The position numbers were made by a program, and so were the translations under genes. Of a stretch of DNA of 64,000 nt, positions 8,364 to 39,515 are shown one piece after another (position 1 is the stretch's first letter; every line of letters starts with the position of its first letter). The stretch covers positions 1 through 64,000 of the IMG/VR virus record IMGVR_UViG_3300045988_108820; one strand, 5' to 3'. This stretch comes from a virus. A model generated the notes under the pieces. It made no database searches and was not told the DNA's origin. It saw only the letters and a program-made list of their open reading frames with translations.

Positions 8364-10535
8364 TTATACACCTTTACTATAAACTCTCTTGTTAGCTTCA
8401 ATCTGCCTGTCTTTACCAAATGACTTGATAGGTCTAAGATAGCCAATTACCCTTGTATATTGAGTTATATTCTTACTATGACACTTTGGACATTCAGTAA
8501 TAGGATGCTTAGTAATGTAACCACAATCATCACACTTACTATTTGGTATATTAAAGGTAAAGTAGTTAGTACCTTCTTTAACTGCAAATTCAATCAACTT
8601 AAGATACTGTTCTTTACTTAAATGGTCTTCAAGATTAATATGACAAGCTGAACCTCCATCACAATATTGTGCTGTCTGCCTTCCATGTAAAATCATCTTA
8701 TCTAGTACTGAAGTATCATCATGAGCATCAAAGAAATATGAGTTATAAAGATTTTCATCTTCAGGAACCCAATAGCCATCCTTTTTATCCCATCTATAGT
8801 TCTTACCACCAAGAGATTCAGCAGGAACTACCTCAGAATTAAACAAGAAAGGTCTCTTACTATCATGTATAGAGTGTAACTTGTTCTGTTCCTTAATAGT
8901 GCCAAGAATCAATTGCAAGAACTTAATATATTCAGAATTATTAGATACCTCAAGACCTAAGAATCTAGCTGCTTCATTCAAGCCATTGATACCAATGGTA
9001 CTATATAACTTGTTCATGTGTATATAGCCACCATTACAAGCTGCAAACATGCCTTTCTCTTCTTGCTCATAAAGCATTGTTTTATATGCTATATGATACT
9101 TATATACTCTTTGGAGAATATCTACTAAGTAATCTATAAGAAACGAAGTATTTTCTTTCCATCCCCCATTTCTCTTTAATCCATAAGCCTTATCACAATC
9201 TTGAACAATCCTATTAATGTTAAGAGTAATTACATTACATGAACCAGTCATTACACCAGTAAGACCTGATGTAGGATTGAAAGTATTCTCCGCAAGTTCA
9301 TTCCTCAACCTACAGCATGATGCAAGACTATCAGCACTATCTGAAATATAAGTGAAGAATGAATGTCCCTCTGCATACATTTCTGCACAAAAGTCCTTAT
9401 ATTCCTTATCTATAATATCTTTGTCATCATGTACCATTGCTAGAGTTTCAACAGGAAAAGTTAAAATCTGCTTAGTTCTAAGTTTATTGAAAAACTTCAT
9501 AAACATCTTCTGAAGAACATTAATTGCAGCCCATTCAGGCTTAGTTCCATCGGGGTAGTAAAACTCTCCAAACAATGAACTAAAGTATGTATGGTCATAA
9601 TAAGATATATTTGTAAATGGACTCTGATATGACCTATTACCAGCAGGTTGATTAATACCATAGATAAACTGTTTGAAAGCTTTCTCTATAAAATCTCTGA
9701 CTGTCCTTTGAGCCTTACAATGAGAATTTGTTACAACACAATCAAGCTTCTCATACCACTTATCTCCAAACTCTGCAATAATGTAATAATTTAGAGCAAT
9801 GAAATATTCTCCAAAGGCTACTGCACCTTTACACTGGGAAGAAAGCAAGAAGGTAAGATTAGTTATTTGTCCACTAAATGATTGTAGGTCATTAGGAGGA
9901 GTGGGTGTTACACCATCTATGTTACCTACACCTTCTGTCATAAGTGGATAAAGAGTATCTGCCTGACAATAGAACTTCAAAGTAGGTACACTAGCTTCAT
10001 CATGAGGATAGATTATATGATTCTCAACATCTATTTCATATTGCTTTGCTACCTCTGGATAAAGAACATTAAGTTCATCCTTCATCCTCTGTCTTTGAAT
10101 AATTCTATTCTTTGTCTTATAAACTTCTCCATCAAGATTGGCAACATTTTTCTGAGTTACATTAGCATTAGAGTCAGTCTCTGAAGAACTAGCAGCATTA
10201 TCATCAGAATCTGCATAGTTAGACATATAATCAATCCTTTCTCTAATAAACCTAGACTCTTCATGTTTACTTCTATAAATAATATAAGCTTTTGCTACAT
10301 CATAAGGTGCTAAATCCATAAGAATCTTCTCTACTTCCATCTGTATAGTAGCAACTCCCACTGTACTAGCTCCTACATGATAAGAGGGAATATAAGTTAA
10401 TTCCTTTAAAACTTCTTCATCAGGCTCTTTACCTTGAGAAGCATAAGCTTTCTTTACAGCATTGATTATTTTATTTAAATCAAATTCCTCAAGTTGACTT
10501 GGTTTACCTTTATTTGTTCTCTTTAGTACTTTCAT
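8364..10535 (-). CDS. nrdD: anaerobic (class III) ribonucleoside-triphosphate reductase
   Basis: N-terminal ATP-cone, C-terminal zinc ribbon CDDCGY...CPKCHS and glycyl-radical motif RVIGYLRP. Confidence 0.9.
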   Translation of the reverse strand: MKVLKRTNKGKPSQLEEFDLNKIINAVKKAYASQGKEPDEEVLKELTYIPSYHVGASTVGVATIQMEVEKILMDLAPYDVAKAYIIYRSKHEESRFIRERIDYMSNYADSDDNAASSSETDSNANVTQKNVANLDGEVYKTKNRIIQRQRMKDELNVLYPEVAKQYEIDVENHIIYPHDEASVPTLKFYCQADTLYPLMTEGVGNIDGVTPTPPNDLQSFSGQITNLTFLLSSQCKGAVAFGEYFIALNYYIIAEFGDKWYEKLDCVVTNSHCKAQRTVRDFIEKAFKQFIYGINQPAGNRSYQSPFTNISYYDHTYFSSLFGEFYYPDGTKPEWAAINVLQKMFMKFFNKLRTKQILTFPVETLAMVHDDKDIIDKEYKDFCAEMYAEGHSFFTYISDSADSLASCCRLRNELAENTFNPTSGLTGVMTGSCNVITLNINRIVQDCDKAYGLKRNGGWKENTSFLIDYLVDILQRVYKYHIAYKTMLYEQEEKGMFAACNGGYIHMNKLYSTIGINGLNEAARFLGLEVSNNSEYIKFLQLILGTIKEQNKLHSIHDSKRPFLFNSEVVPAESLGGKNYRWDKKDGYWVPEDENLYNSYFFDAHDDTSVLDKMILHGRQTAQYCDGGSACHINLEDHLSKEQYLKLIEFAVKEGTNYFTFNIPNSKCDDCGYITKHPITECPKCHSKNITQYTRVIGYLRPIKSFGKDRQIEANKRVYSKGV

Positions 10536-10951
10536 ATTTTATTAATCCAATCTTCAAGTTGGTTGGGATTTACCCTACTTATATTATTTGGAACAGCGGG
10601 TTTGTCCTTTAAATAATGTGATAACTCTTCTCCTATTGTAAATGGGTCTCTAAGGATTATTTGTTTATCCTTTCCAAGTGTTAAATCTCCCTTAGCTTCT
10701 GTTGATCTGAAATTCCATACAAGTGGTGTTAAAGTTTTCTTATTTGCTACTATAAACTTATAAGGAGCTAATTTGAAGTCTTTAAAATATAGATCTTTAT
10801 CCATATTATATCTAATTATTCTCCAATATAATCTAGCTTGAATGTCATAGTGCCACTCTAGGAAACTCTTATAGAAATCCCACTCTGTTTTAGAACTAGT
10901 TTTCAAATCCACAGGGACTACTAATTTCTTATCATGAAATACAATTAATTC
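10532..10951 (-). CDS. PD-(D/E)XK nuclease (RecB/YqaJ-like), exon 2
   Basis: The frame is open upstream of the track start. The inferred exon begins ELIVFHDKKLVVPVDLKTS, which carries the D-x-K of the nuclease motif. Confidence 0.65.
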   Translation of the reverse strand, partial: ELIVFHDKKLVVPVDLKTSSKTEWDFYKSFLEWHYDIQARLYWRIIRYNMDKDLYFKDFKLAPYKFIVANKKTLTPLVWNFRSTEAKGDLTLGKDKQIILRDPFTIGEELSHYLKDKPAVPNNISRVNPNQLEDWINKI

Positions 10952-12061
10952 CAGTTGTGTTATCTTATAGGCTCTTTATCCTATAATTCTACAGTTTCAT
11001 GTATATCTGTAGCTCGGACTATATCTTCATTTTTTCAAATGCTCGGCACTCTTGGGTATATTATATTCTATTTTATAGTTTCAATACCTAGTCTCTGAAC
11101 CTTCACTTTTTTAAAGGTGTGCTTGGCTGCTGATTGTCCCATCGGAGTTTCCAGCAATTCACCGAGTTTTAAGCGAACTCATACTTATTAATATTTGATA
11201 TTTATCATATTTTCTTTTTAAATAAAAATTAGAATCTAAGTATAGCCAATCTAAGATTTTCTTAACTTGATGCCCAGTATAATTAAGGTGATATACATCA
11301 TACTTTGTTTCCTTTCCTAGATAACCATTAGTAAGTGCTTGTTTTGTTATAATAGGTCTAACTTGTTCAAGGAAAACTTTTGATGCAGAAGTTAAATCAA
11401 ATCTACAATGATATATTTTATCTTGAAGTTGTAAACAACCGTCTCCATCAAAGAACCCTCTTATAAAGTGTCTATATAGAGATTTATCAATATTTGGAAA
11501 TTGGATTGTCCTAGTCTTATTAGGAGTACATCCCCAGCTTATTAAGTAATTACAGGATTTTTGAGAACTTACTTCTAAAACATAAGCATCATATCCTCTA
11601 TAAGTAACTTTTCTTATAGGATAATCACATTGTAGACAATCTCTAAATTTCATTATAATATCTTCATCTTTTAATTTTAGATAAAATTTATTTTTAGATA
11701 CACTGCCATCTGAATACATTAACCCTAGAAAATAAGCTTTTGCCTCTGTATCAATATATTCAAAGAAGTTTTCATCTATTAAGTGTCTTCCTACTCTATT
11801 TCTTCTATGCTTTGAATAATCTCTTTTATATATGATTCCTGCACTTCTAATATACTTTAATACTGTACTATTACTATATCCTAATTTTTCTCCTATTTCT
11901 ATAGGTTGCAATCCTTGATTATACAATTCAAGAATTGATTCTAAATTAATAACCTTTATATTCATACCTTTATTTTTAGATATATGTACAAAGGTAATGA
12001 TAATAAATCAAGTATACAAATCTGTAAGTAACTCTATAATGGAATTGTTATAAAGTTTTTA
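10952..12061 (-). mobile_element. group I intron 1 (about 1110 nt) in the nuclease gene
   Basis: Minus-strand core elements in order: P AATTGCTGGAAA (11148-11159), Q AATCAGCAGCC (11125-11135), R GGTTCAGAGACT (11090-11101), S AAGATATAGTCC (11016-11027). The 5' exon ends in U (GAT|taa) and the intron ends ...GATAACACAACTG|. Confidence 0.8.
11159..11965 (-). CDS. intron-encoded LAGLIDADG homing endonuclease with N-terminal HTH
   Basis: Two LAGLIDADG motifs (YFLGLMYSDGSV, FIRGFFDGDGCL); N-terminal HTH (GYSNSTVLKYIRSAG). Confidence 0.85.
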   Translation of the reverse strand: MNIKVINLESILELYNQGLQPIEIGEKLGYSNSTVLKYIRSAGIIYKRDYSKHRRNRVGRHLIDENFFEYIDTEAKAYFLGLMYSDGSVSKNKFYLKLKDEDIIMKFRDCLQCDYPIRKVTYRGYDAYVLEVSSQKSCNYLISWGCTPNKTRTIQFPNIDKSLYRHFIRGFFDGDGCLQLQDKIYHCRFDLTSASKVFLEQVRPIITKQALTNGYLGKETKYDVYHLNYTGHQVKKILDWLYLDSNFYLKRKYDKYQILISMSSLKTR

Positions 12062-26196: not shown

Positions 26197-27297
26197 CAAT
26201 TTTGTTATCATAAAGCTTTTTATCTTTATTTCTTATGCTTCATTTTACATAAGTTCGGCGTACATTTTCACCTTTAACTTAATAGTAAGGGTAGGACACT
26301 CTTGGGTCTATTATATTTATTCAAGACCTACGCTCTACACTACTAATTAACCTTTTGCAATTTAATTAGTTAGCACGGTATTGGCATCTCAGCTTTCACC
26401 GTTTTTGCCCTATAATCATATTAAGAATTTCTTCTTAACACGGCAAATCTATTGTATTTTCTATCTAAATATATAGTAGCATCTTCATATAGAATAGTAG
26501 CAAGCTTATCAGCTTTATCACAAGAGCAACTAATACTATAAGTGTTGCTAGTACTCCTTTTATTTCTAGCTACCTTTCCTGTAAAGAACTCAGGAAAATA
26601 ATTAATAATTCCATCTAGAAACTCTTTAGTTCCAATAATTTCAATTACTAATCTACCTGTTTTAGTATATGTTAAGCACCCATCCCCATCAATATACCCC
26701 CTTATAAAATCCTTGATTAATCCTGTATTTTTGAATATACTTTTATCAGGGAATTTTAGTATTAGAGATTTTCTAGGAATACACCCTAATTCAATTAGTC
26801 TATCATGGAAGTGCTTATCTGTAGCATTAAATCTACATCTTTGATAAGCCTTTCCATTACATCTAGAATTAGACAGCTTCACTTCATTCCTACTCTCTAA
26901 GAACTCTTTGAATTTTTGCAGATGCTCTTTATCTACACTAGCTAATGATAATTCTACTTGATTATCTCTTGCAGAGATACTTCCATCAGCATATAAGAAT
27001 CCTAGCCAATAAGCTTTCTCCTCAGTATCAATACTATCAAAAATTTTGTTGTTAAATTTTAGTTCATTATGATAGTTGTGAAGATTAATGCCTAGCTTTC
27101 TTAATTTCCTGTGTACTGTAGAATAATCTAAATTCAATATAGAACTTATCTCTTTTCCTGTCTTTCTTTTCTGAACTAGCTTTAATAATTCAGATGTTAC
27201 TTCTCTGTATTTGCCCATAATATTTGTAGTTTATTTGGCAAAGGCACAGATAATTATTTAGATATGCAATAGGTTAAGTAAATTACTTAACTATTTT
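26197..27297 (-). mobile_element. group I intron 4 (about 1101 nt) in the helicase gene
   Basis: The 3' end GATAACAAAATTG| matches introns 1-3. 5' exon ends GGT|. The core is diverged but shares the GGACACTCTTGGG block with intron 1. Confidence 0.6.
26421..27218 (-). CDS. intron-encoded LAGLIDADG homing endonuclease with HTH
   Basis: YWLGFLYADGSI and FIRGYIDGDGCL; N-terminal HTH LNLDYSTVHRKLRKLG. Confidence 0.85.
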   Translation of the reverse strand: MGKYREVTSELLKLVQKRKTGKEISSILNLDYSTVHRKLRKLGINLHNYHNELKFNNKIFDSIDTEEKAYWLGFLYADGSISARDNQVELSLASVDKEHLQKFKEFLESRNEVKLSNSRCNGKAYQRCRFNATDKHFHDRLIELGCIPRKSLILKFPDKSIFKNTGLIKDFIRGYIDGDGCLTYTKTGRLVIEIIGTKEFLDGIINYFPEFFTGKVARNKRSTSNTYSISCSCDKADKLATILYEDATIYLDRKYNRFAVLRRNS

Positions 27298-28016: not shown

Positions 28017-28418
28017 TTAATCTTCAAAAATAGTATAGTGAAAACTTATTGCACCTAAGTCTTGAGCTATAAGTTCACAATACTTCTTTATCTTAATATC
28101 TTCTGATAAAGTGTCCCATAGTCTTTTAGGTTTCTTACCCTTAGTAGCACTTATGAATCTACTATACTTAGGACTAATTGGTTCTTTTATTATTTGTTCA
28201 TAAGCTTCTTTTGACATTCTTAATACCTGTTTAGCAGGTATAGATTTTCTAGTCATAAAGTTTATAATTACAGGACCTTTATCTTTCTTAGATTTATCTC
28301 CCTTAAGAACAATTTTATGTTCTTCCATAAACTTTTTTGGTTTGTTTTCAGCCACCTGTTGGCTTATCATAGTACTTCCTGGAAGTACAAATGTAAGACT
28401 TAACTTTGGTTCAACCAT
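28017..28418 (-). CDS. hypothetical basic protein (133 aa)
   Basis: Intact ORF followed by a terminator. Confidence 0.5.
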   Translation of the reverse strand: MVEPKLSLTFVLPGSTMISQQVAENKPKKFMEEHKIVLKGDKSKKDKGPVIINFMTRKSIPAKQVLRMSKEAYEQIIKEPISPKYSRFISATKGKKPKRLWDTLSEDIKIKKYCELIAQDLGAISFHYTIFED

Positions 28419-28421
28419 AAA

Positions 28422-28766
28422 TTAATTAATAATGTCGTTGTTTATATTTTTCTTTATTTTCTCTTTAGAGTCTTTCTTCATAATAGATTCAAAGAACTTT
28501 ATCTTAGCTACTGACTTTACCATCTCCATGAGTACTATAAAGTTTCTTAGAGGCATAGTAAGCATTATAGAGGAGATAACAATCGTTACAAGATTAATAC
28601 TCTTTCCAGAGAAATTTTCAATGAGGCTTGTTACATCCTCAATCTTAATATTCTTCTCTTTGTATTCTTCTTCTTTCTCCTTGTAAGCTACCTTAATTGT
28701 TTCAAGTACTCTCTTAATGTCTTTCTCATTGATGATAGACATCTGATTTTCTTTGTCTGCTGCCAT
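28422..28766 (-). CDS. hypothetical protein (114 aa)
   Basis: Intact ORF; the antisense ORF 28432..28686 is judged a shadow. Confidence 0.5.
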   Translation of the reverse strand: MAADKENQMSIINEKDIKRVLETIKVAYKEKEEEYKEKNIKIEDVTSLIENFSGKSINLVTIVISSIMLTMPLRNFIVLMEMVKSVAKIKFFESIMKKDSKEKIKKNINNDIIN

Positions 28767-28815
28767 AATTTTGTTTATTAAAATTAATATAAAATAAATA
28801 GTGTTTTCTAAAAAT

Positions 28816-28929
28816 AGCTACTTAATTGATACATTATCAGTGTATTGCATTAACCACTATGCTAATCATCCATCTTTATGAGAATAATATAGGACTCGAA
28901 CCTATGAAATAATAGTATTGTAAGTAGCT
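28816..28929 (-). ncRNA. cassette f: circularly permuted tRNA-like RNA clamped by a 9-bp terminal stem
   Basis: Minus-strand order: AGCUACUUA-CAAUACUAUUAUUUC, then T arm ATAGG-TTCGAGT-CCTAT, 3' acceptor ATTATTC, T, a 9-nt linker, 5' acceptor GGATGAT, TA, D arm GCAT-AGTGGTTA-ATGC, anticodon arm ATACA-CTGATAA-TGTAT, CAAT, and UAAGUAGCU. Confidence 0.55.
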
Positions 28930-28979
28930 CAAATGCAGTAAAATATAAAATTTTACTATATGAAAGAAAGTAAGTTATT

Positions 28980-29040
28980 GGCACTGATATTATCCCTATA
29001 ATATAAATAAACATTGTAACCAATGTGTTTTGTAAGTGCC
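28980..29040 (-). repeat. cassette e: ACUUACAA-core hairpin unit (stem GGCACU/AGUGCC)
   Basis: Inverted repeat ggcact (28980-85) / agtgcc (29035-40), plus an inner hairpin ACATTG/CAATGT. Confidence 0.5.
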
Positions 29041-29045
29041 AAAAG

Positions 29046-29153
29046 CGGGGAAGGTAGGACTCGAACCTACATTTGATAGTTTATGAAATCTATTGCTTAT
29101 TATTAGTGTTGTAAGTATCCATGATACTATTAAACCATTTTAGCTACTTCCCC
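29046..29153 (-). ncRNA. cassette d: tRNA-like gene with an internal insertion of about 31 nt carrying the ACUUACAA core
   Basis: Perfect acceptor GGGGAAG/CTTCCCC, D arm GCTA-AAATGGTTTAA-TAGT and T arm GTAGG-TTCGAGT-CCTAC. There are 54 nt between the D and T arms, including hairpin AGTATC-ATG-GATACT and an ATAG-(A)TTTCATAA(A)-CTAT arm. Confidence 0.5.
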
Positions 29154-29164
29154 TTGTTGTTTAT

Positions 29165-29264
29165 AGTTACTTAATAATGTATGTTAGATTTGAACTAACT
29201 GTCTTTGAATTATAAATTCAACGCTTTACCAAATAAGCTAATACTATTAGTATTGTAAGTAACT
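29165..29264 (-). ncRNA. cassette c: tRNA-Ile(UAU)-like module inside a 9-bp leader/trailer clamp
   Basis: Clamp AGUUACUUA/UAAGUAACU. Inside (29175..29247): D arm GCTT-ATTTGGTA-AAGC, anticodon arm TTGAA-TTTATAA-TTCAA, T arm GTTAG-TTCAAAT-CTAAC. The acceptor pairs only 5 of 7. Confidence 0.5.
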
Positions 29265-29275
29265 TATATGTCTAT

Positions 29276-29339
29276 AGACACTAAAAAATCATAATACACA
29301 AATCCAAATTTAATTTTAGAGATTATATTGTAAGTGTCT
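29276..29339 (-). repeat. cassette b: ACUUACAA-core hairpin unit (stem AGACACU/AGUGUCU)
   Basis: Inverted repeat agacact (29276-82) / agtgtct (29333-39). Confidence 0.5.
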
Positions 29340-29347
29340 TTGAGTAA

Positions 29348-29381
29348 ATATAGGAGGTATTACTCCTCCTATATTTTTTTA
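29348..29381. terminator. strong hairpin, possibly a bidirectional terminator
   Basis: 10-bp stem ATATAGGAGG/CCTCCTATAT with a T7 run on the plus side and an A7 run on the other side; about 100 nt downstream of the vWA gene stop. Confidence 0.5.
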
Positions 29382-29401
29382 TTGATATTAAACTAATTAT
29401 T

Positions 29402-29456
29402 GATACTAAACTAAAATTAAATGCTTCAAGAAATTAATATATTAATTGTAAGTATC
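29402..29456 (-). repeat. cassette a: ACUUACAA-core hairpin unit (stem GAUACU/AGUAUC)
   Basis: Inverted repeat gatact (29402-07) / agtatc (29451-56). Confidence 0.45.
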
Positions 29457-29471
29457 AGTTATTATGCTTAG

Positions 29472-31298
29472 TTAAAGTACATTTTCCTTTACTATATCAT
29501 ATCTATTGCTCCTAAACAAAGATTGTAAAGGAGTATAAACATCCATAATATCCATATCTTTGAAGTTAGTTAAGAACTGCTCAATCTGTGCTACATTAGC
29601 AGGGATATAAATCATATTCTCAATACCTTCAAATCTATTGATAGAAGTACTTCTAAAACCCCAACCACCATCTACATCAATAGCTACAATGTAGGGTTTA
29701 AATCCAAAGTATCTTTGACATTTCATCATAAAACTATTCATTGAAGCTTCAGGAGATGGAAATGAGTTCCATTCACCATCACTAATAATAGTCCATACAG
29801 GATAATTCTTCAGAGCATCAAGTATTTGAGGATTACGCTGACATTCCAAATGTAAAGTATCTGGAATTTTATCAATATAAGTACAACCACCTTGGAATAC
29901 TGCATTACAGAAACTCTTAATAGATTGATAATTGTCATAGAAGCTCTTCTTAGGGTCAACAAATGGAGTTTGCTTAATCTTTACTGCGTTACTTCTAATG
30001 AGAGAGTTTGCAGAAGTAGCTTTTCTATCTATACAAGTATGCCAATGACTGTTACTATTGAAGAAACCAAGTAAGTTTCTACCATCATCATCTGGATTCT
30101 TACATAGACATACAGAAGCCAAGAATGAAGCAAAGTTAAAGGGTTTACCTCTCATAGAACCTGAATCATCTATAATTACAAGACTATTATAAGGAAGATT
30201 AACCTTAGTCATGAATGTTTCAAGCTTTAGTTTATCTACATTGCCATAGCAAATATCATTGTACAGCTCTTTGAAGTTAGTTGCACCTGTATTAACCTTA
30301 GCCTGCTTTGCAACTTTCCTTAACTTGATTTTATCTTCCTCTGTAGCTTGTCCCTGTCTAACTTTTTCCTCTAGAACTCTTTGTTCAGTTTGTTTAGATT
30401 CTTTATATCTCTCCCATTCAGTAAGCCAAGGTTGGAACTTAGAATATTTATCCTTCTCAGTATCTTTAATCTTACTATAAAGGATTCTGTTCTTAACTCT
30501 AAACCTTGCTTGTGAAGGAAGTTTGTCAAACCAATCAATAAATGACTGTTTATCAAACTCATTAATTTTACCTGTAGAAAATAGTACTGACTCAAGGTTA
30601 CCATTATAATCCTTTCTCCACTTTCTATAGCCTTTGAAGTTAGCATAGCCCTCATTTACTTCATACTCCCAACCCATAAGTTCTGAGAGCATTATAAGTA
30701 ACTTGATCTTATCTTCCATTACCTTTTTAGTTTCAGGAAGCATCTTGCTATGACCACTTCTCTTACCTACTCTAGGAAGTGTTAGAAATTTAGCAACAAG
30801 AGTTTTATTAAAAGGATTACTACCATTGATAACTTTATAGAGATAGTTTGCAATAACCTCTCTATATTTTGCTTCAGCAAAGAGATTATGTATTCTAATA
30901 ACTCTAGAACCTTTAGTTTGTACTCTATTTCTAAACAGCAAGTCAAAGCAAGTATATTCATTGAACAAACCTGCTTCAAGGAATTTTACAAATTGAGTTT
31001 GGTGTTTATTCCACATCCAATTAAGAACTACTTGAAAACCCTCTCTATTAGCATTACCACCACTGTCTTTTTTAACACCTTTAAAGATGTTATGTTGTCT
31101 AGCTGTAATATCTCCAATTGAAAAGAGTAAACTAAAGAACATTTTTCTTTTTTCTTTGTCATTCTTAACCTCTAACCAACAAGCATCTAGTAATGATGTA
31201 TCAATTGCATTACATACATTTTGGAAGAGTTTAAGACAATTTTTTAATCCATAAAAAGGATTATTGTTACTTTTGCTATTTAATTTAACTTGTACCAT
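29472..31298 (-). CDS. helical N-domain (DUF2828-like) plus vWA/MIDAS protein; Ro60-like architecture
   Basis: MIDAS motif D-x-S-x-S in SLVIIDDSGSMRG at about residue 375. The N-terminal FFSLLFSIGDITARQ...GGNANREGFQVVLNWMW resembles the remembered DUF2828 pattern (FylRdiR.GkGER..F...l.wL). Confidence 0.6.
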   Translation of the reverse strand: MVQVKLNSKSNNNPFYGLKNCLKLFQNVCNAIDTSLLDACWLEVKNDKEKRKMFFSLLFSIGDITARQHNIFKGVKKDSGGNANREGFQVVLNWMWNKHQTQFVKFLEAGLFNEYTCFDLLFRNRVQTKGSRVIRIHNLFAEAKYREVIANYLYKVINGSNPFNKTLVAKFLTLPRVGKRSGHSKMLPETKKVMEDKIKLLIMLSELMGWEYEVNEGYANFKGYRKWRKDYNGNLESVLFSTGKINEFDKQSFIDWFDKLPSQARFRVKNRILYSKIKDTEKDKYSKFQPWLTEWERYKESKQTEQRVLEEKVRQGQATEEDKIKLRKVAKQAKVNTGATNFKELYNDICYGNVDKLKLETFMTKVNLPYNSLVIIDDSGSMRGKPFNFASFLASVCLCKNPDDDGRNLLGFFNSNSHWHTCIDRKATSANSLIRSNAVKIKQTPFVDPKKSFYDNYQSIKSFCNAVFQGGCTYIDKIPDTLHLECQRNPQILDALKNYPVWTIISDGEWNSFPSPEASMNSFMMKCQRYFGFKPYIVAIDVDGGWGFRSTSINRFEGIENMIYIPANVAQIEQFLTNFKDMDIMDVYTPLQSLFRSNRYDIVKENVL

Positions 31299-31330
31299 CT
31301 TATTAATATTTATTATTATTTGTAAGTAAC
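31266..31330 (-). promoter_or_regulatory. cassette g: ACUUACAA core on the vWA gene leader, with a 6-bp stem enclosing the start codon
   Basis: Minus strand GUUACUUACAAAUAAUAAUAAAUAUUAAUAAG-AUG-...AGCAAAAGUAAC; arms gttact (31266-71) / agtaac (31325-30); ATG at 31298. Confidence 0.4.
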
Positions 31331-31382
31331 ATAGTTAGGATATTCTTTTTATCTTTGAATTATATATGTCTTCCTTATACTA

Positions 31383-31826
31383 TTAGAAAGTTTCAGCTTC
31401 ATCTATAGCTGAAAGCTCTGCTTCAAGTTCCTTAATTTTATCCTCAGGTGATTTCTGAGAATCTTTAAGTTCTTTAAGTTTAGCTGTAAGTTCAGCTTTT
31501 TTCTTGATATTTTCTTCAACCTCCATTTTATATCTCTTGTAACCTATTACAAGGTTTACAAGTTCTTTTTGTCTTTTTGCAATGTCTAGTTGTTGGGCAT
31601 TAATTTCACTTGCTATCCACTCATCTTGACTTTCAAGTTGCTTAATTTTATTAGATAAAGTAAGTCTAATATTATTAAGAGAGTTGATTGTAGTAGTGTG
31701 AAGCAACTCAACTACATTGATAGGTGTTCCTAGTTTAGAGCTTATTATTTCATTTCTAAGTAACATACCCATCAACAAAGTACACATTTTATTAAAGTGC
31801 TCTTTTGTAAAGTTAATCTTTGCCAT
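31383..31826 (-). CDS. hypothetical coiled-coil protein (147 aa)
   Basis: Heptad-rich C-terminal half (KKKAELTAKLKELKDSQKSPEDKIKELEAELSAIDE). Confidence 0.5.
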   Translation of the reverse strand: MAKINFTKEHFNKMCTLLMGMLLRNEIISSKLGTPINVVELLHTTTINSLNNIRLTLSNKIKQLESQDEWIASEINAQQLDIAKRQKELVNLVIGYKRYKMEVEENIKKKAELTAKLKELKDSQKSPEDKIKELEAELSAIDEAETF

Positions 31827-37949: not shown

Positions 37950-38021
37950 GGAGCCATCATCTAATGGTTAGGATACAAGATTTTCAACCTTGAAATAGGG
38001 GTTCAATTCCCCTTGGCTCTT
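37950..38021 (+). tRNA. tRNA-Glu(UUC)
   Basis: Acceptor GGAGCCA/TGGCTCT, anticodon loop TTTTCAA (31-39 A.C mismatch), T arm AGGGG-TTCAATT-CCCCT. Confidence 0.75.
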
Positions 38022-38026
38022 CAATA

Positions 38027-38098
38027 GACTATGAAGTGTAATGGTTTTGCATACCACACTGTCAATGTGGTGGATGGGGTTCAATTCCCCCATAGTCT
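38027..38098 (+). tRNA. tRNA-Asp(GUC)
   Basis: Acceptor GACTATG/CATAGTC, anticodon arm CCACA-CTGTCAA-TGTGG, T loop TTCAATT. Confidence 0.75.
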
Positions 38099-38101
38099 GC
38101 T

Positions 38102-38296
38102 ATGATAAAAATATTAAGAAAGGAGGGTTGGATATTAAACCCTAATGATAAAATAGTAAATGCTATTTTAAAAAGAGTAGAATTAAATAATGGAGAGTGT
38201 CCTTGTCAAAATGATAGTAGTGATAAGCATTGTCCATGTACAGATTATAGAGATAAAAACTTATGTCATTGTAATCTCTATATCAAGTCAGAGTAA
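38102..38296 (+). CDS. ferredoxin-thioredoxin reductase catalytic-subunit-like small Cys protein
   Basis: CPCQ...CPC...CHCNLY spacing matches the FTR beta-chain CPC/CPC/CHC signature. Confidence 0.55.
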   Translation: MIKILRKEGWILNPNDKIVNAILKRVELNNGECPCQNDSSDKHCPCTDYRDKNLCHCNLYIKSE

Positions 38297-38319
38297 TATC
38301 TACTCTAGAACTAACTAAG

Positions 38320-38391
38320 GGGTGAGTGATGTAATTGGTAACATACTTCCTTTGCAAGGAAGAATTAAGGGTTCAAATCCCTCTTGCTCCA
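38320..38391 (+). tRNA. tRNA-Ala(UGC)
   Basis: D arm ATGT-AATTGGTA-ACAT, anticodon arm CTTCC-TTTGCAA-GGAAG, T loop TTCAAAT. The acceptor register is ambiguous (one register gives G3.U70). Confidence 0.7.
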
Positions 38392-38553
38392 CAATATTAA
38401 CTATAATTTATTAATATGAAAAAGATTTTATCTTTATTTAAAAGGGGACTTAATGCCTATTTAAATGCATTAGCTAAATGTCCTTATGTACCGTCAGGAA
38501 CTATCCCAATGGGAGTTTAGTTCCTTTAATTTAGAATTAATACTATAATATAT

Positions 38554-38626
38554 TGGCATATAGTATAAAGGTTTATTACGATTGACTGTTAATCAATGAA
38601 TCAAGGTTCGAGTCCTTGTATGCCAG
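38554..38626 (+). tRNA. tRNA-Asn(GUU)
   Basis: Acceptor TGGCATA/TATGCCA, anticodon arm ATTGA-CTGTTAA-TCAAT, T arm CAAGG-TTCGAGT-CCTTG. Confidence 0.85.
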
Positions 38627-38647
38627 CATAGAAAAATAATATATAAT

Positions 38648-38878
38648 ATGTGGTTATTGGAAAGTAATAGATCTAAACACCTACTTTATGCAATACCTTC
38701 AGCCTATATAGGTACTATATTATTTAGTACTGGTTTAGCTTTTGGTATGGAGTTTAAAGATAAACAATATGGTGGTAAATTTGATTGGCTTGATATAGCT
38801 GCTACTATGATAGGTGGTATAGTTGGTCAATTATTGCAGGTTAGTATGATAAGTTTAATCTATTTAACATTTAATTAA
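38648..38878 (+). CDS. small membrane protein (76 aa)
   Basis: Two hydrophobic helices (IGTILFSTGLAFG, IAATMIGGIVGQLLQV). Confidence 0.45.
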   Translation: MWLLESNRSKHLLYAIPSAYIGTILFSTGLAFGMEFKDKQYGGKFDWLDIAATMIGGIVGQLLQVSMISLIYLTFN

Positions 38879-38979
38879 TATGGAAGCACTTAATGTTATA
38901 ATTGGTATTGTAGGTAATGCAATAGTACTAGGTCTTATGTATTATTTTCTGGTAAAAAAGAAAGAATAATACTTAGGAT

Positions 38980-39065
38980 GCCTCCATGTTGGAATTAGTA
39001 GACAAGTTAGACTTAAAATCTAATAATCAGTAATGATTATGTGGGTGCAAGTCCCACTGGAGGTA
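38980..39065 (+). tRNA. tRNA-Leu(UAA), type II (second copy, opposite strand to 33180..33263)
   Basis: Acceptor GCCTCCA/TGGAGGT, anticodon arm TTAGA-CTTAAAA-TCTAA, long variable arm, T arm GTGGG-TGCAAGT-CCCAC. Confidence 0.8.
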
Positions 39066-39132
39066 CTATAGCAGCTCTTGAAGGGTGTAGAAAAGCATAG
39101 ACTTACTAGACTATTTAGACAATCTGCTATAA

Positions 39133-39215
39133 ACCCACTTGCTGGAATTGGTAGACAGGCTAGACTTAGGATCTAGTATCTAAATGATGTAAGAGTTCAA
39201 GTCTCTTAGTGGGTA
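39133..39215 (+). tRNA. tRNA-Leu(UAG), type II
   Basis: Acceptor ACCCACT/AGTGGGT, anticodon arm CTAGA-CTTAGGA-TCTAG, T arm AGAG(T)-TTCAAGT-CTCT. Confidence 0.8.
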
Positions 39216-39247
39216 CTAAAAATAATTATAAAAAACTTATAAAAAAG

Positions 39248-39278
39248 TTTGTAATTTCAAATAAATTACTTATCTTTG
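39248..39278 (+). promoter_or_regulatory. canonical Bacteroidota-type promoter in front of tRNA-Thr/Met
   Basis: TTTG (39248-51), a 19-nt spacer, then TATCTTTG (39271-78); the tRNA starts 15 nt downstream. Confidence 0.6.
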
Positions 39279-39292
39279 TAATTGTTGAAGAT

Positions 39293-39364
39293 GGTCTCTT
39301 AGTATAAAGGTTAATATCCTTGCTTTGTAACCAAGGGATGTAAGTTCGATTCTTACAGGGACCT
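39293..39364 (+). tRNA. tRNA-Thr(UGU)
   Basis: Acceptor GGTCTCT/AGGGACC, anticodon loop TTTGTAA with a 31-39 C.C mismatch, T arm GTAAG-TTCGATT-CTTAC. Confidence 0.7.
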
Positions 39365-39370
39365 CAATAT

Positions 39371-39443
39371 ACAGGGATGTTAGCAGTGGTAGCTAGTTAG
39401 CCTCATAAGCTAAAGGTCGTGGGTTCGACTCCCACTCCCTGAA
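39371..39443 (+). tRNA. tRNA-Met(CAU) (or Ile2/initiator type; acceptor register irregular)
   Basis: D arm TAGC-AGTGGTA-GCTA, anticodon arm TTAGC-CTCATAA-GCTAA, T arm GTGGG-TTCGACT-CCCAC. The top of the acceptor stem is mismatched. Confidence 0.7.
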
Positions 39444-39515
39444 CAAATTAAAATTAATAAATATATCTTCTTTGAAGAATACTTTATCTAGTGTATCATA
39501 TATAAAAATAACACT

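Follow-up and report, generated by a model that had tools for sequence, protein, structure and literature searches.

Tagged tRNA-like RNAs beside the gene for a protein of Ro60-like architecture in a crAss-like phage: a candidate RNA–protein pair

Six copies of a short conserved core, ACUUACAA in RNA, fill a 705-nt gene-free stretch of a crAss-like phage genome immediately 3' of an open reading frame (ORF) for a 608-aa protein (29472–31298, minus strand), and a seventh copy is located in the 5' untranslated region (5'UTR) of the same gene. The DNA analysed comprises positions 1 to 64,000 of IMG/VR record IMGVR_UViG_3300045988_108820, and these 64,000 nt are referred to below as the window. Every core adjoins a helix whose two arms covary. 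Three topologies occur among the tRNA-derived RNAs that the helices close: the helix surrounds a full tRNA, it surrounds a circularly permuted tRNA-like RNA with an order like that of YrlA, or it forms a tight hairpin inside a tRNA-like gene. Helices, tRNA-like folds and gene are strictly coupled in the genomes of related phages. We infer that the co-encoded protein binds helix plus ACUUACAA as its tag, that the tagged RNAs are tRNA mimics resembling Y RNAs and that the 5'UTR copy serves autoregulation, a reading of the sequence to which we give a probability of about 0.58.

Conservation and covariation of the helix

On the plus strand TTGTAAGT occurs at 28918, 29030, 29109, 29253, 29328, 29446 and 31320, exactly as listed in the original prediction, which was made from the letters of this DNA; the surrounding genes are on the minus strand, so that the relevant RNA is ACUUACAA. 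These seven are among 11 matches on both strands of the window, the remaining four being dispersed on the opposite strand (chance expectation about five), and single-mismatch versions of the core are not enriched within the window. An exact inverted partner of 6–9 nt was found for all seven cores at the places predicted (paired arms TGTTACTT, TGATACT, AGACACT, AGTTACTTA, GATACT, TTGGCACT and AGCTACTTA); for the GATACT unit the partner lies 12 nt upstream and the loop is 3 nt. When the flanks were shuffled (n=2000), a control that the original prediction had proposed together with folding of each unit, at most four of the seven cores were partnered. Such a partner exists for 9.6% of random 6-mers drawn from this AT-rich window, a rate that gives P~7e-8 for seven of seven. 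The minimum free energy (MFE) structure from RNAfold contains the closing helix, or in the reversed unit the hairpin, in all seven units.

The comparison was extended to 46 related loci with 47–96% protein identity. In every one of them the 8-mer ACTTACAA is invariant and confined to the gene strand, and one 5'UTR copy occurs together with an adjacent array of 1–9 copies. The array is on the gene strand in all loci and usually starts 16–110 nt past the stop codon; in several more distant loci it lies ~0.5–1.6 kb away, or upstream of the gene. At 32–42% protein identity the core CUUACAA is retained and AGUUACAA variants arise. The logo of 241 non-redundant instances reads W-G-N-Y-ACUUACAA-W-A-Y-U-A, and a cognate 6-nt partner is present for 94% of these instances, compared with 27% for non-cognate arms. 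The claim that a constant core with compensating arms marks a selected RNA stem thus holds both among the paralogous units of the window and among orthologues.

The 241 instances divide into 181 long-range units, 40 tight hairpins and 20 that are unpaired. The helix is 7 bp long in 176 of the 181 long-range (forward) units, of which 50 enclose a tRNA recognized by ARAGORN, 52 contain a T-loop without a canonical tRNA and 79, including the 5'UTR copies, have no T-loop. Among the 20 instances without an exact partner, G.U pairing rescues eight and A.C pairing one, which favours an RNA transcribed from the gene strand. Of the 40 hairpin-type tags, 36 lie inside tRNA-like genes whose acceptor and T-arm are intact, and there are about ten different arm pairs in which the changes compensate. 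The hairpin and long-range contexts share one geometry, in which ACU ends a helix strand and single-stranded UACAA comes next.

A scan of IMG/VR that was blind to the protein and sought two motifs 66–96 nt apart returned mostly chance matches and serves as a control only; it contained two true arrays among the matches listed (120 loci), both with the protein gene. On an unrelated viral contig (L136, 660–900) there are direct and inverted ACTTACAA iterons (ACTTACAAACTTACAAG...), which are probably an origin or operator sharing the 8-mer by coincidence. The nearest GenBank record to the source phage is Steigviridae phage cr116_1, with a DNA match in the flanking genes only. The similarity of 28402–28815 to MT774389 (cr116_1) 10928–11333 ends exactly at the outer edge of the array. 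Both the array and the 608-aa gene are missing from cr116_1, so that the module appears to have been inserted or lost.

The tagged RNAs

The units of the array, numbered from the gene outwards, and two neighbouring features are as follows.

29401–29457, minus strand: array unit 1; helix UGAUACU/AGUAUCA plus ACUUACAA; non-tRNA loop of ~38 nt; begins 15 nt past the stop codon
29276–29339, minus strand: array unit 2; helix AGACACU/AGUGUCU plus ACUUACAA; loop of 46 nt
29165–29264, minus strand: array unit 3; 9-bp leader–trailer helix AGUUACUUA/UAAGUAACU around a complete tRNA-Ile(UAU)-like RNA (29175–29247)
29046–29153, minus strand: array unit 4; tRNA-like gene with a perfect 7-bp acceptor GGGGAAG/CUUCCCC, D-arm and T-arm
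28978–29042, minus strand: array unit 5; helix UUGGCACU/AGUGCCAA plus ACUUACAA; two small internal hairpins, no T-loop; folding z = -3.6
28816–28929, minus strand: array unit 6; circularly permuted tRNA-like RNA
29346–29376, no strand assigned: GC-rich terminator-like hairpin between units 1 and 2, conserved in position in loci L002, L004 and L006
33179–35243 (minus strand) and 37950–39444 (plus strand): canonical tRNA clusters, 15 genes in total

A GAU-type orthologue of unit 1 is present in all close relatives, and the hairpin that separates it from unit 2 suggests attenuation, or a separate transcript for unit 1. The GAC unit orthologous to unit 2 contains a tRNA-Lys(UUU) in L004 and a tRNA-Thr(UGU) in L006. 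Unit 3, the one array unit that ARAGORN and Rfam detect as a full tRNA (58.9 bits), has two terminal mismatches in its acceptor stem, and the change to AGUCACU/AGUGACU in its orthologues is compensatory. The tag of unit 4 is the hairpin AGUAUC-AUG-GAUACU followed by UACAA (29128–29109), placed between the D-arm and an anticodon-like hairpin. Unit 6 runs in the order closing helix AGCUACUUA, CAA, spacer, T-arm, 3' acceptor strand, loop, 5' acceptor strand, D-arm, anticodon arm (GAU) and UAAGUAGCU, with a U-run after it. Searches of the array region with Rfam (the window at gathering thresholds, 28700–29500 at E up to 10) found no Y RNA, ribozyme or intron family, and gave only unit 3 plus a borderline half-tRNA match for unit 6. 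Splicing of the hairpin-type units as introns was considered and rejected: the 'introns' called by ARAGORN fall at inconsistent positions (26–42), and no common excision restores a tRNA.

The hairpin of unit 4 accounts for the cassette, called d in the original prediction, in which the two arms appeared adjacent and in reversed order. That prediction was right about the stem and had not noticed that the helices enclose tRNAs or tRNA mimics, one of them circularly permuted, that cassette d lies within a tRNA-like gene, that a gene for a Ro60-like protein adjoins the array or that the seventh copy belongs to the 5'UTR of this gene.

None of the 15 canonical tRNA genes of the window carries the tag. 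Ordinary Ile(UAU) and Ile(GAU) genes, whose acceptor stems pair perfectly, are among them. Several anticodons occur more than once: Leu-UAA is found twice in the canonical clusters, and the tagged array adds one tRNA-like copy each for Ile-UAU and Ile-GAU (units 3 and 6). In the related loci (L002–L048), a full 7-bp acceptor stem is found in 14 of 48 helix-enclosed tRNAs, compared with 36 of 53 free-standing tRNAs of the same loci; the mismatches concentrate at pairs 2–3. Several enclosed tRNAs have anticodon loops of 8 nt (L004, 5874–5949; L006, 5208–5283; L009, 4761–4834; L021, 4488–4563 and 5284–5358), for which ARAGORN gives the anticodon calls 'cggg', 'tttg', 'ttct' and 'ttgg'.

Distinct permuted units number 35 from diverged phages, namely unit 6 of the window and 34 others. 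In all of them the 3' half is encoded upstream of the 5' half within one transcript unit. RNAalifold, applied to 26 units, independently recovers the closing helix, the T-arm, the acceptor-like stem-loop and the anticodon arm; with the D-arm added, 94.6% of cells are paired, compared with 36–41% when partners are slid. Double changes occur in 22 of 28 pairs, covariation extends across all five helices, and none of 500 shuffles matches the observed values. T-arm, D-arm and a 7-bp acceptor are retained in the permuted units, most of which also have an anticodon arm of the 5-bp/7-nt form, in which A37 and a U33-like residue are present. Since the anticodon arm is kept in most units, the closing helix sits at the position of the variable loop. 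The anticodon arm is missing from the orthologous unit in five loci (L002, L009, L013, L014 and L016), which argues against an obligatory decoding role. The closing helix itself is a continuous plain 7-bp stem, with no bulge–helix–bulge and no conserved 3-nt bulges, and is flanked by single-stranded spacers of 12–27 nt and 4–20 nt. Among phages whose protein is at least 90% identical, the permuted RNA is nearly invariant except in the acceptor loop and the anticodon triplet, which reads GAU, UUU, GUU, GUC or UCA (window unit; L010, L011, L012 and L018). With the stem and the remainder of the RNA nearly unchanged, the triplet is a local hot spot of variation.

The adjoining protein and the 5'UTR copy

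The gene and the copy of the tag at its start are located as follows.

29472–31298, minus strand: gene for the 608-aa protein; alpha-helical N-terminal domain (~residues 1–365) and C-terminal von Willebrand factor A (vWA) domain
31265–31331, minus strand: 5'UTR/early coding sequence tag; 5' strand UGUUACUU plus ACAA at 31331–31320, partner AAGUAACA at 31272–31265

The MIDAS of the vWA domain (its metal-ion-dependent adhesion site) is intact (D377, S379, S381, T473 and D507), and these residues are invariant in 63 diverse homologues. The protein belongs to no family in Pfam or PHROGs, and phmmer gave no match in the PDB; a profile of the protein yielded only weak vWA matches there, including TROVE proteins at E 0.056–1.7. 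A first AF2 model, built from 20 close homologues, was too poor (predicted local distance difference test score, pLDDT, 70), gave only vWA matches and was replaced by an AlphaFold model from the 63 diverse homologues (pLDDT 90; predicted template modelling score, pTM, 0.85). The best match of this model among solved structures is the Ro/Rsr protein of Deinococcus radiodurans (2nvo), aligned over its full length (629 columns, E 2.8e-6) at a template modelling (TM) score of ~0.3; all other PDB matches are to isolated vWA domains. Comparison with vertebrate Ro60 by hhalign aligns the vWA domain (probability 57%, E 1e-4). Rsr is the best match, but with a low TM score and an hhalign alignment confined to the vWA domain, and we describe the modelled architecture as Ro60-like and a kinship with TROVE proteins as putative. 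More than 1200 homologues are present in metagenomic data and essentially none in cellular genomes; tblastn against GenBank phage records found no homologue.

The seventh core lies 22–29 nt upstream of the ATG of the ORF (31298–31296), and its partner AAGUAACA lies in codons 9–11 (K-S-N), so that both the start codon and the ribosome-binding region are inside the helix. This arrangement recurs: a 5'UTR tag is conserved in nearly all relatives, mostly 9–100 nt upstream of the mapped gene start, with its partner in codons 8–10, at +51 or just upstream of the ATG, and the start region is bracketed throughout despite these shifts. In L041 the two arms form the compensatory pair GGACACUU/AAGUGUCC. 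Directly upstream of the 5'UTR tag (~31331–31380, minus strand) is a conserved element, GGAAGAC...ATAGTTCAAAG...GAATATCC, also seen in L002, L006 and L019, which is a candidate phage promoter of the gene-plus-array unit. A terminator-like hairpin (31391–31414) precedes the element.

Two further features of the window may be recorded. A group I catalytic intron (Rfam RF00028, 67 bits; 10995–11233, minus strand) lies between ORFs 10532–10912 and 11159–11965 and so probably splits a gene. Two genes downstream of the array there is an ORF for a LAGLIDADG-type homing endonuclease (26421–27218, minus strand; Pfam LAGLIDADG_3; PHROG 4645, E 3e-56).

A proposed binding tag and its alternatives

Our working hypothesis is that the tag is an RNA element in which a 7-bp helix, with one strand 5'-W-G-N-Y-A-C-U-3' and the opposite strand A-G-U-R-N-C-W, is followed immediately by single-stranded UACAA, and that it is the recognition site of the 608-aa protein with its alpha-helical N-terminal domain and vWA domain. 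The tag would have been grafted onto tRNA-derived RNAs in three ways. In the first it surrounds an entire tRNA-like RNA as a leader–trailer helix; in the second it pairs the 5' and 3' ends of a permuted tRNA-like RNA, which comprises a T-arm, a closed acceptor stem-loop, a D-arm and, in many cases, an anticodon arm; in the third it is a capped hairpin within a tRNA-like gene. The tagged products, as tRNA mimics of the Y RNA kind, would be loaded onto the protein and, by analogy with Ro60 and Y RNA, may tether it to tRNA-binding partners or targets. In the 5'UTR copy the same helix would form over the ribosome-binding region and start codon, so that excess protein would shut off its own translation. 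We consider this account the simplest because it covers the invariant UACAA, the fixed 7-bp helix in which two base pairs are free to vary, the geometry shared by hairpin and long-range contexts, the linkage to one gene and the copy at the start codon.

The closest parallel is the bacterial Ro60/Rsr–YrlA system, in which the YrlA partner RNAs of Ro60 are encoded within 4 kb on the same strand and run in the order 5' stem, V, T-arm, acceptor-like stem-loop, D-arm and 3' stem (Chen et al. 2014, PMC4201824). The two systems share a protein with an alpha-helical domain and a vWA domain with MIDAS, neighbouring non-coding RNA genes on the same strand and several RNAs per locus (PMC4201824). They also share a permuted tRNA-like module (V, T-arm, acceptor-like stem-loop and D-arm) and RNAs whose 5' and 3' ends pair into a closing stem, the 5' strand of which bears a conserved motif; in the phage the stem is the 7-bp helix with its invariant ACU/AGU and flanking UACAA. 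Unlike YrlA, most of the permuted phage RNAs keep the anticodon arm, and the helix is at the variable-loop position and does not replace the anticodon stem; further differences from Ro60/YrlA are the arrays of up to nine RNAs in three topologies, the tag in the gene's own 5'UTR and the Crassvirales context. Phages can carry Ro60/Yrl systems: Thermus phage phiLo encodes phiRo60 with Yrl1 and Yrl2, and these particles engage host PNPase in what has been proposed to be the hijack of a host RNA enzyme (PMC12135203). As in phiLo with its ring/vWA protein, a vWA protein and adjacent stem-closed RNAs are both phage-encoded here; phiRo60, however, is a recognizable TROVE protein whose RNAs have the CGAA motif within a bulge and have not been presented as a tRNA-mimic array (PMC12135203). 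The similarity of the 608-aa protein to phiRo60 is weak and at the level of the vWA domain only (E 0.056).

The position of the 5'UTR copy also has precedents in kind. Autoregulatory mRNA operators that mimic the RNA ligand of a protein are known from ribosomal-protein operons, the ThrRS operator and T4 RegA/gp32. As in these, a copy of the putative protein site overlaps the translation start of the protein's own mRNA, as judged here from sequence; unlike them, the helix spans a long range (55–90 nt), with the start codon inside it and not next to it.

Several observations weigh against this hypothesis. The N-terminal domain has no match to Pfam TROVE (PF05731, the HEAT-repeat ring), in contrast to that of Ro60/Rsr, and was left unaligned by hhalign with vertebrate Ro60, and the TM score to Rsr is just ~0.3. 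The closest viral folds in BFVD are uncharacterized DUF7788/VWFA proteins (TM 0.5–0.67, E ~1e-10). DUF7788/DUF2828-type VWFA proteins of phages and giant viruses resemble the 608-aa protein in having an alpha-helical N-terminal domain and a vWA domain, and give the best full-length fold matches, yet they have no known function or RNA partner and negligible sequence similarity to it. The known Rsr motif, GNCGAAN0-1G, is not that of the tag (W-G-N-Y-ACUUACAA in a 7-bp helix), and the logo of the 241 instances contains no CGAA. Many units enclose apparently complete tRNAs with real anticodons, which is compatible with a role in tRNA maturation or protection, and a hot spot at the anticodon triplet is not required of a purely structural mimic.

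On a bolder reading, which we put forward tentatively and think rather unlikely, the tagged array would consist of protein-escorted tRNA decoys, or of split and still functional tRNAs, with anticodon triplets under diversifying selection. Through a Ro60-like particle the phage would either offer anticodon loops to host factors specific for anticodons, such as defence nucleases, modification enzymes or synthetases, or protect its own decoding tRNAs from these factors.

If helix plus ACUUACAA were instead a processing signal, at which a host or phage endonuclease releases or matures special phage tRNAs from a polycistronic transcript, the neighbouring protein would be unrelated or a cofactor. 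The 50 forward units that enclose ARAGORN tRNAs, with leaders of 4–14 nt and trailers of 1–13 nt, the marking of unit boundaries by helices and a fixed 7-bp length that would suit a measuring nuclease all agree with such a signal. We nevertheless think it unlikely, given that the 15 canonical tRNA genes of the phage do without it, that the hairpin-type copies lie within tRNA-like bodies, that cleavage at the 5'UTR copy would cut the gene's own mRNA in its first codons, that the enclosed tRNAs have a full acceptor stem in just 14 of 48 cases (36 of 53 when free-standing) and that the strict coupling to one protein family would go unexplained. A plain RNase III or transcript-boundary role, suggested in the original prediction, similarly leaves aside the invariant unpaired UACAA, the fixed helix length, the internal hairpins and the 5'UTR copy. 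Quite improbable, in our view, is that the permuted units are genuine permuted or split tRNA genes, in which cleavage of the acceptor loop (RNase P, 3' trimming and CCA addition), with or without ligation at the helix, would give decoding tRNAs escorted or protected by the protein. Circularly permuted tRNA genes are known from Cyanidioschyzon merolae, some green algae and Thermofilum, where a bulge–helix–bulge is cut by the archaeal/eukaryal splicing endonuclease and a canonical tRNA is regenerated. The phage units resemble these genes in that the half with the T-arm and 3' acceptor strand precedes that with the 5' acceptor strand, D-arm and anticodon arm, and in that the termini pair; the T-arm, D-arm, 7-bp acceptor and mostly standard anticodon arm are retained, and triplets vary between near-identical phages as if anticodon identity mattered. 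Moreover, YrlA of M. smegmatis is cut by RNase P and receives CCA (PMC4201824). The phage units differ from permuted tRNA genes in their bacterial-virus context, in a plain 7-bp stem where a bulge–helix–bulge would be expected, in an anticodon arm that five orthologues dispense with and in long spacers on both sides of the helix, with which the canonical variable region is not restored; among the neighbours tested, neither an RNA ligase nor a splicing endonuclease was found.

Finally, ACTTACAA might act at the DNA level: a phage RNA polymerase might use it as promoter or initiator, or it might be an operator or a site at which tRNA cassettes are exchanged by recombination. Most units indeed have the motif at their 5' edge, the gene has a copy just upstream of it, the 5'UTR copy is preceded by a conserved element, and the tRNA content of orthologous units varies between phages in a cassette-like way. 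However, a DNA signal has no need of a covarying partner 30–130 nt away, some of these partners lie within coding sequence, the orientation is strictly strand-specific, pairing is rescued by G.U (eight times) and A.C (once), what the helices enclose is tRNA-like, the hairpin-type copies are found within tRNA-like genes and no recombinase is linked to the array. We therefore regard a role purely in DNA, including the operator offered as an alternative in the original prediction, as very improbable; a promoter role could coexist with the RNA tag. Overall, these alternatives to the binding tag are disfavoured by the evidence from strand and G.U pairing, by the 5'UTR copy and the internal hairpins and by the fact that the anticodon arm is optional.

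Crassvirales are the dominant phages of the human gut, and to our knowledge none of their non-coding RNAs, and only a minority of their genes, have been characterized. Text searches of the literature found no description of the motif and no report of a vWA/Ro-like protein or of tRNA mimics for Crassvirales. Relative to the Ro60/Y-RNA principle, what is new is the tag sequence, a protein family unrecognizable by sequence, arrays in three topologies and an apparent autoregulatory copy. The locus provides a sharply defined candidate RNA–protein pair, with a tag that is invariant down to ~47% protein identity, and the natural compensatory variants of its arms, together with the apparent autoregulatory copy, amount to built-in genetics. 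If the binding-tag hypothesis is true, the Ro60/Y-RNA principle would extend to a protein family missed by sequence searches, and the permuted units would be the first circularly permuted tRNA-like genes of a bacterial virus that still have an anticodon arm. That variation concentrates at the anticodon triplet hints at a function in an arms race and bears on the long-standing question of why tRNA is mimicked by bacterial Y RNAs; should the RNAs prove to be decoys or shields, they would form part of an anti-defence ribonucleoprotein of an undescribed kind, in the most abundant group of human gut phages.

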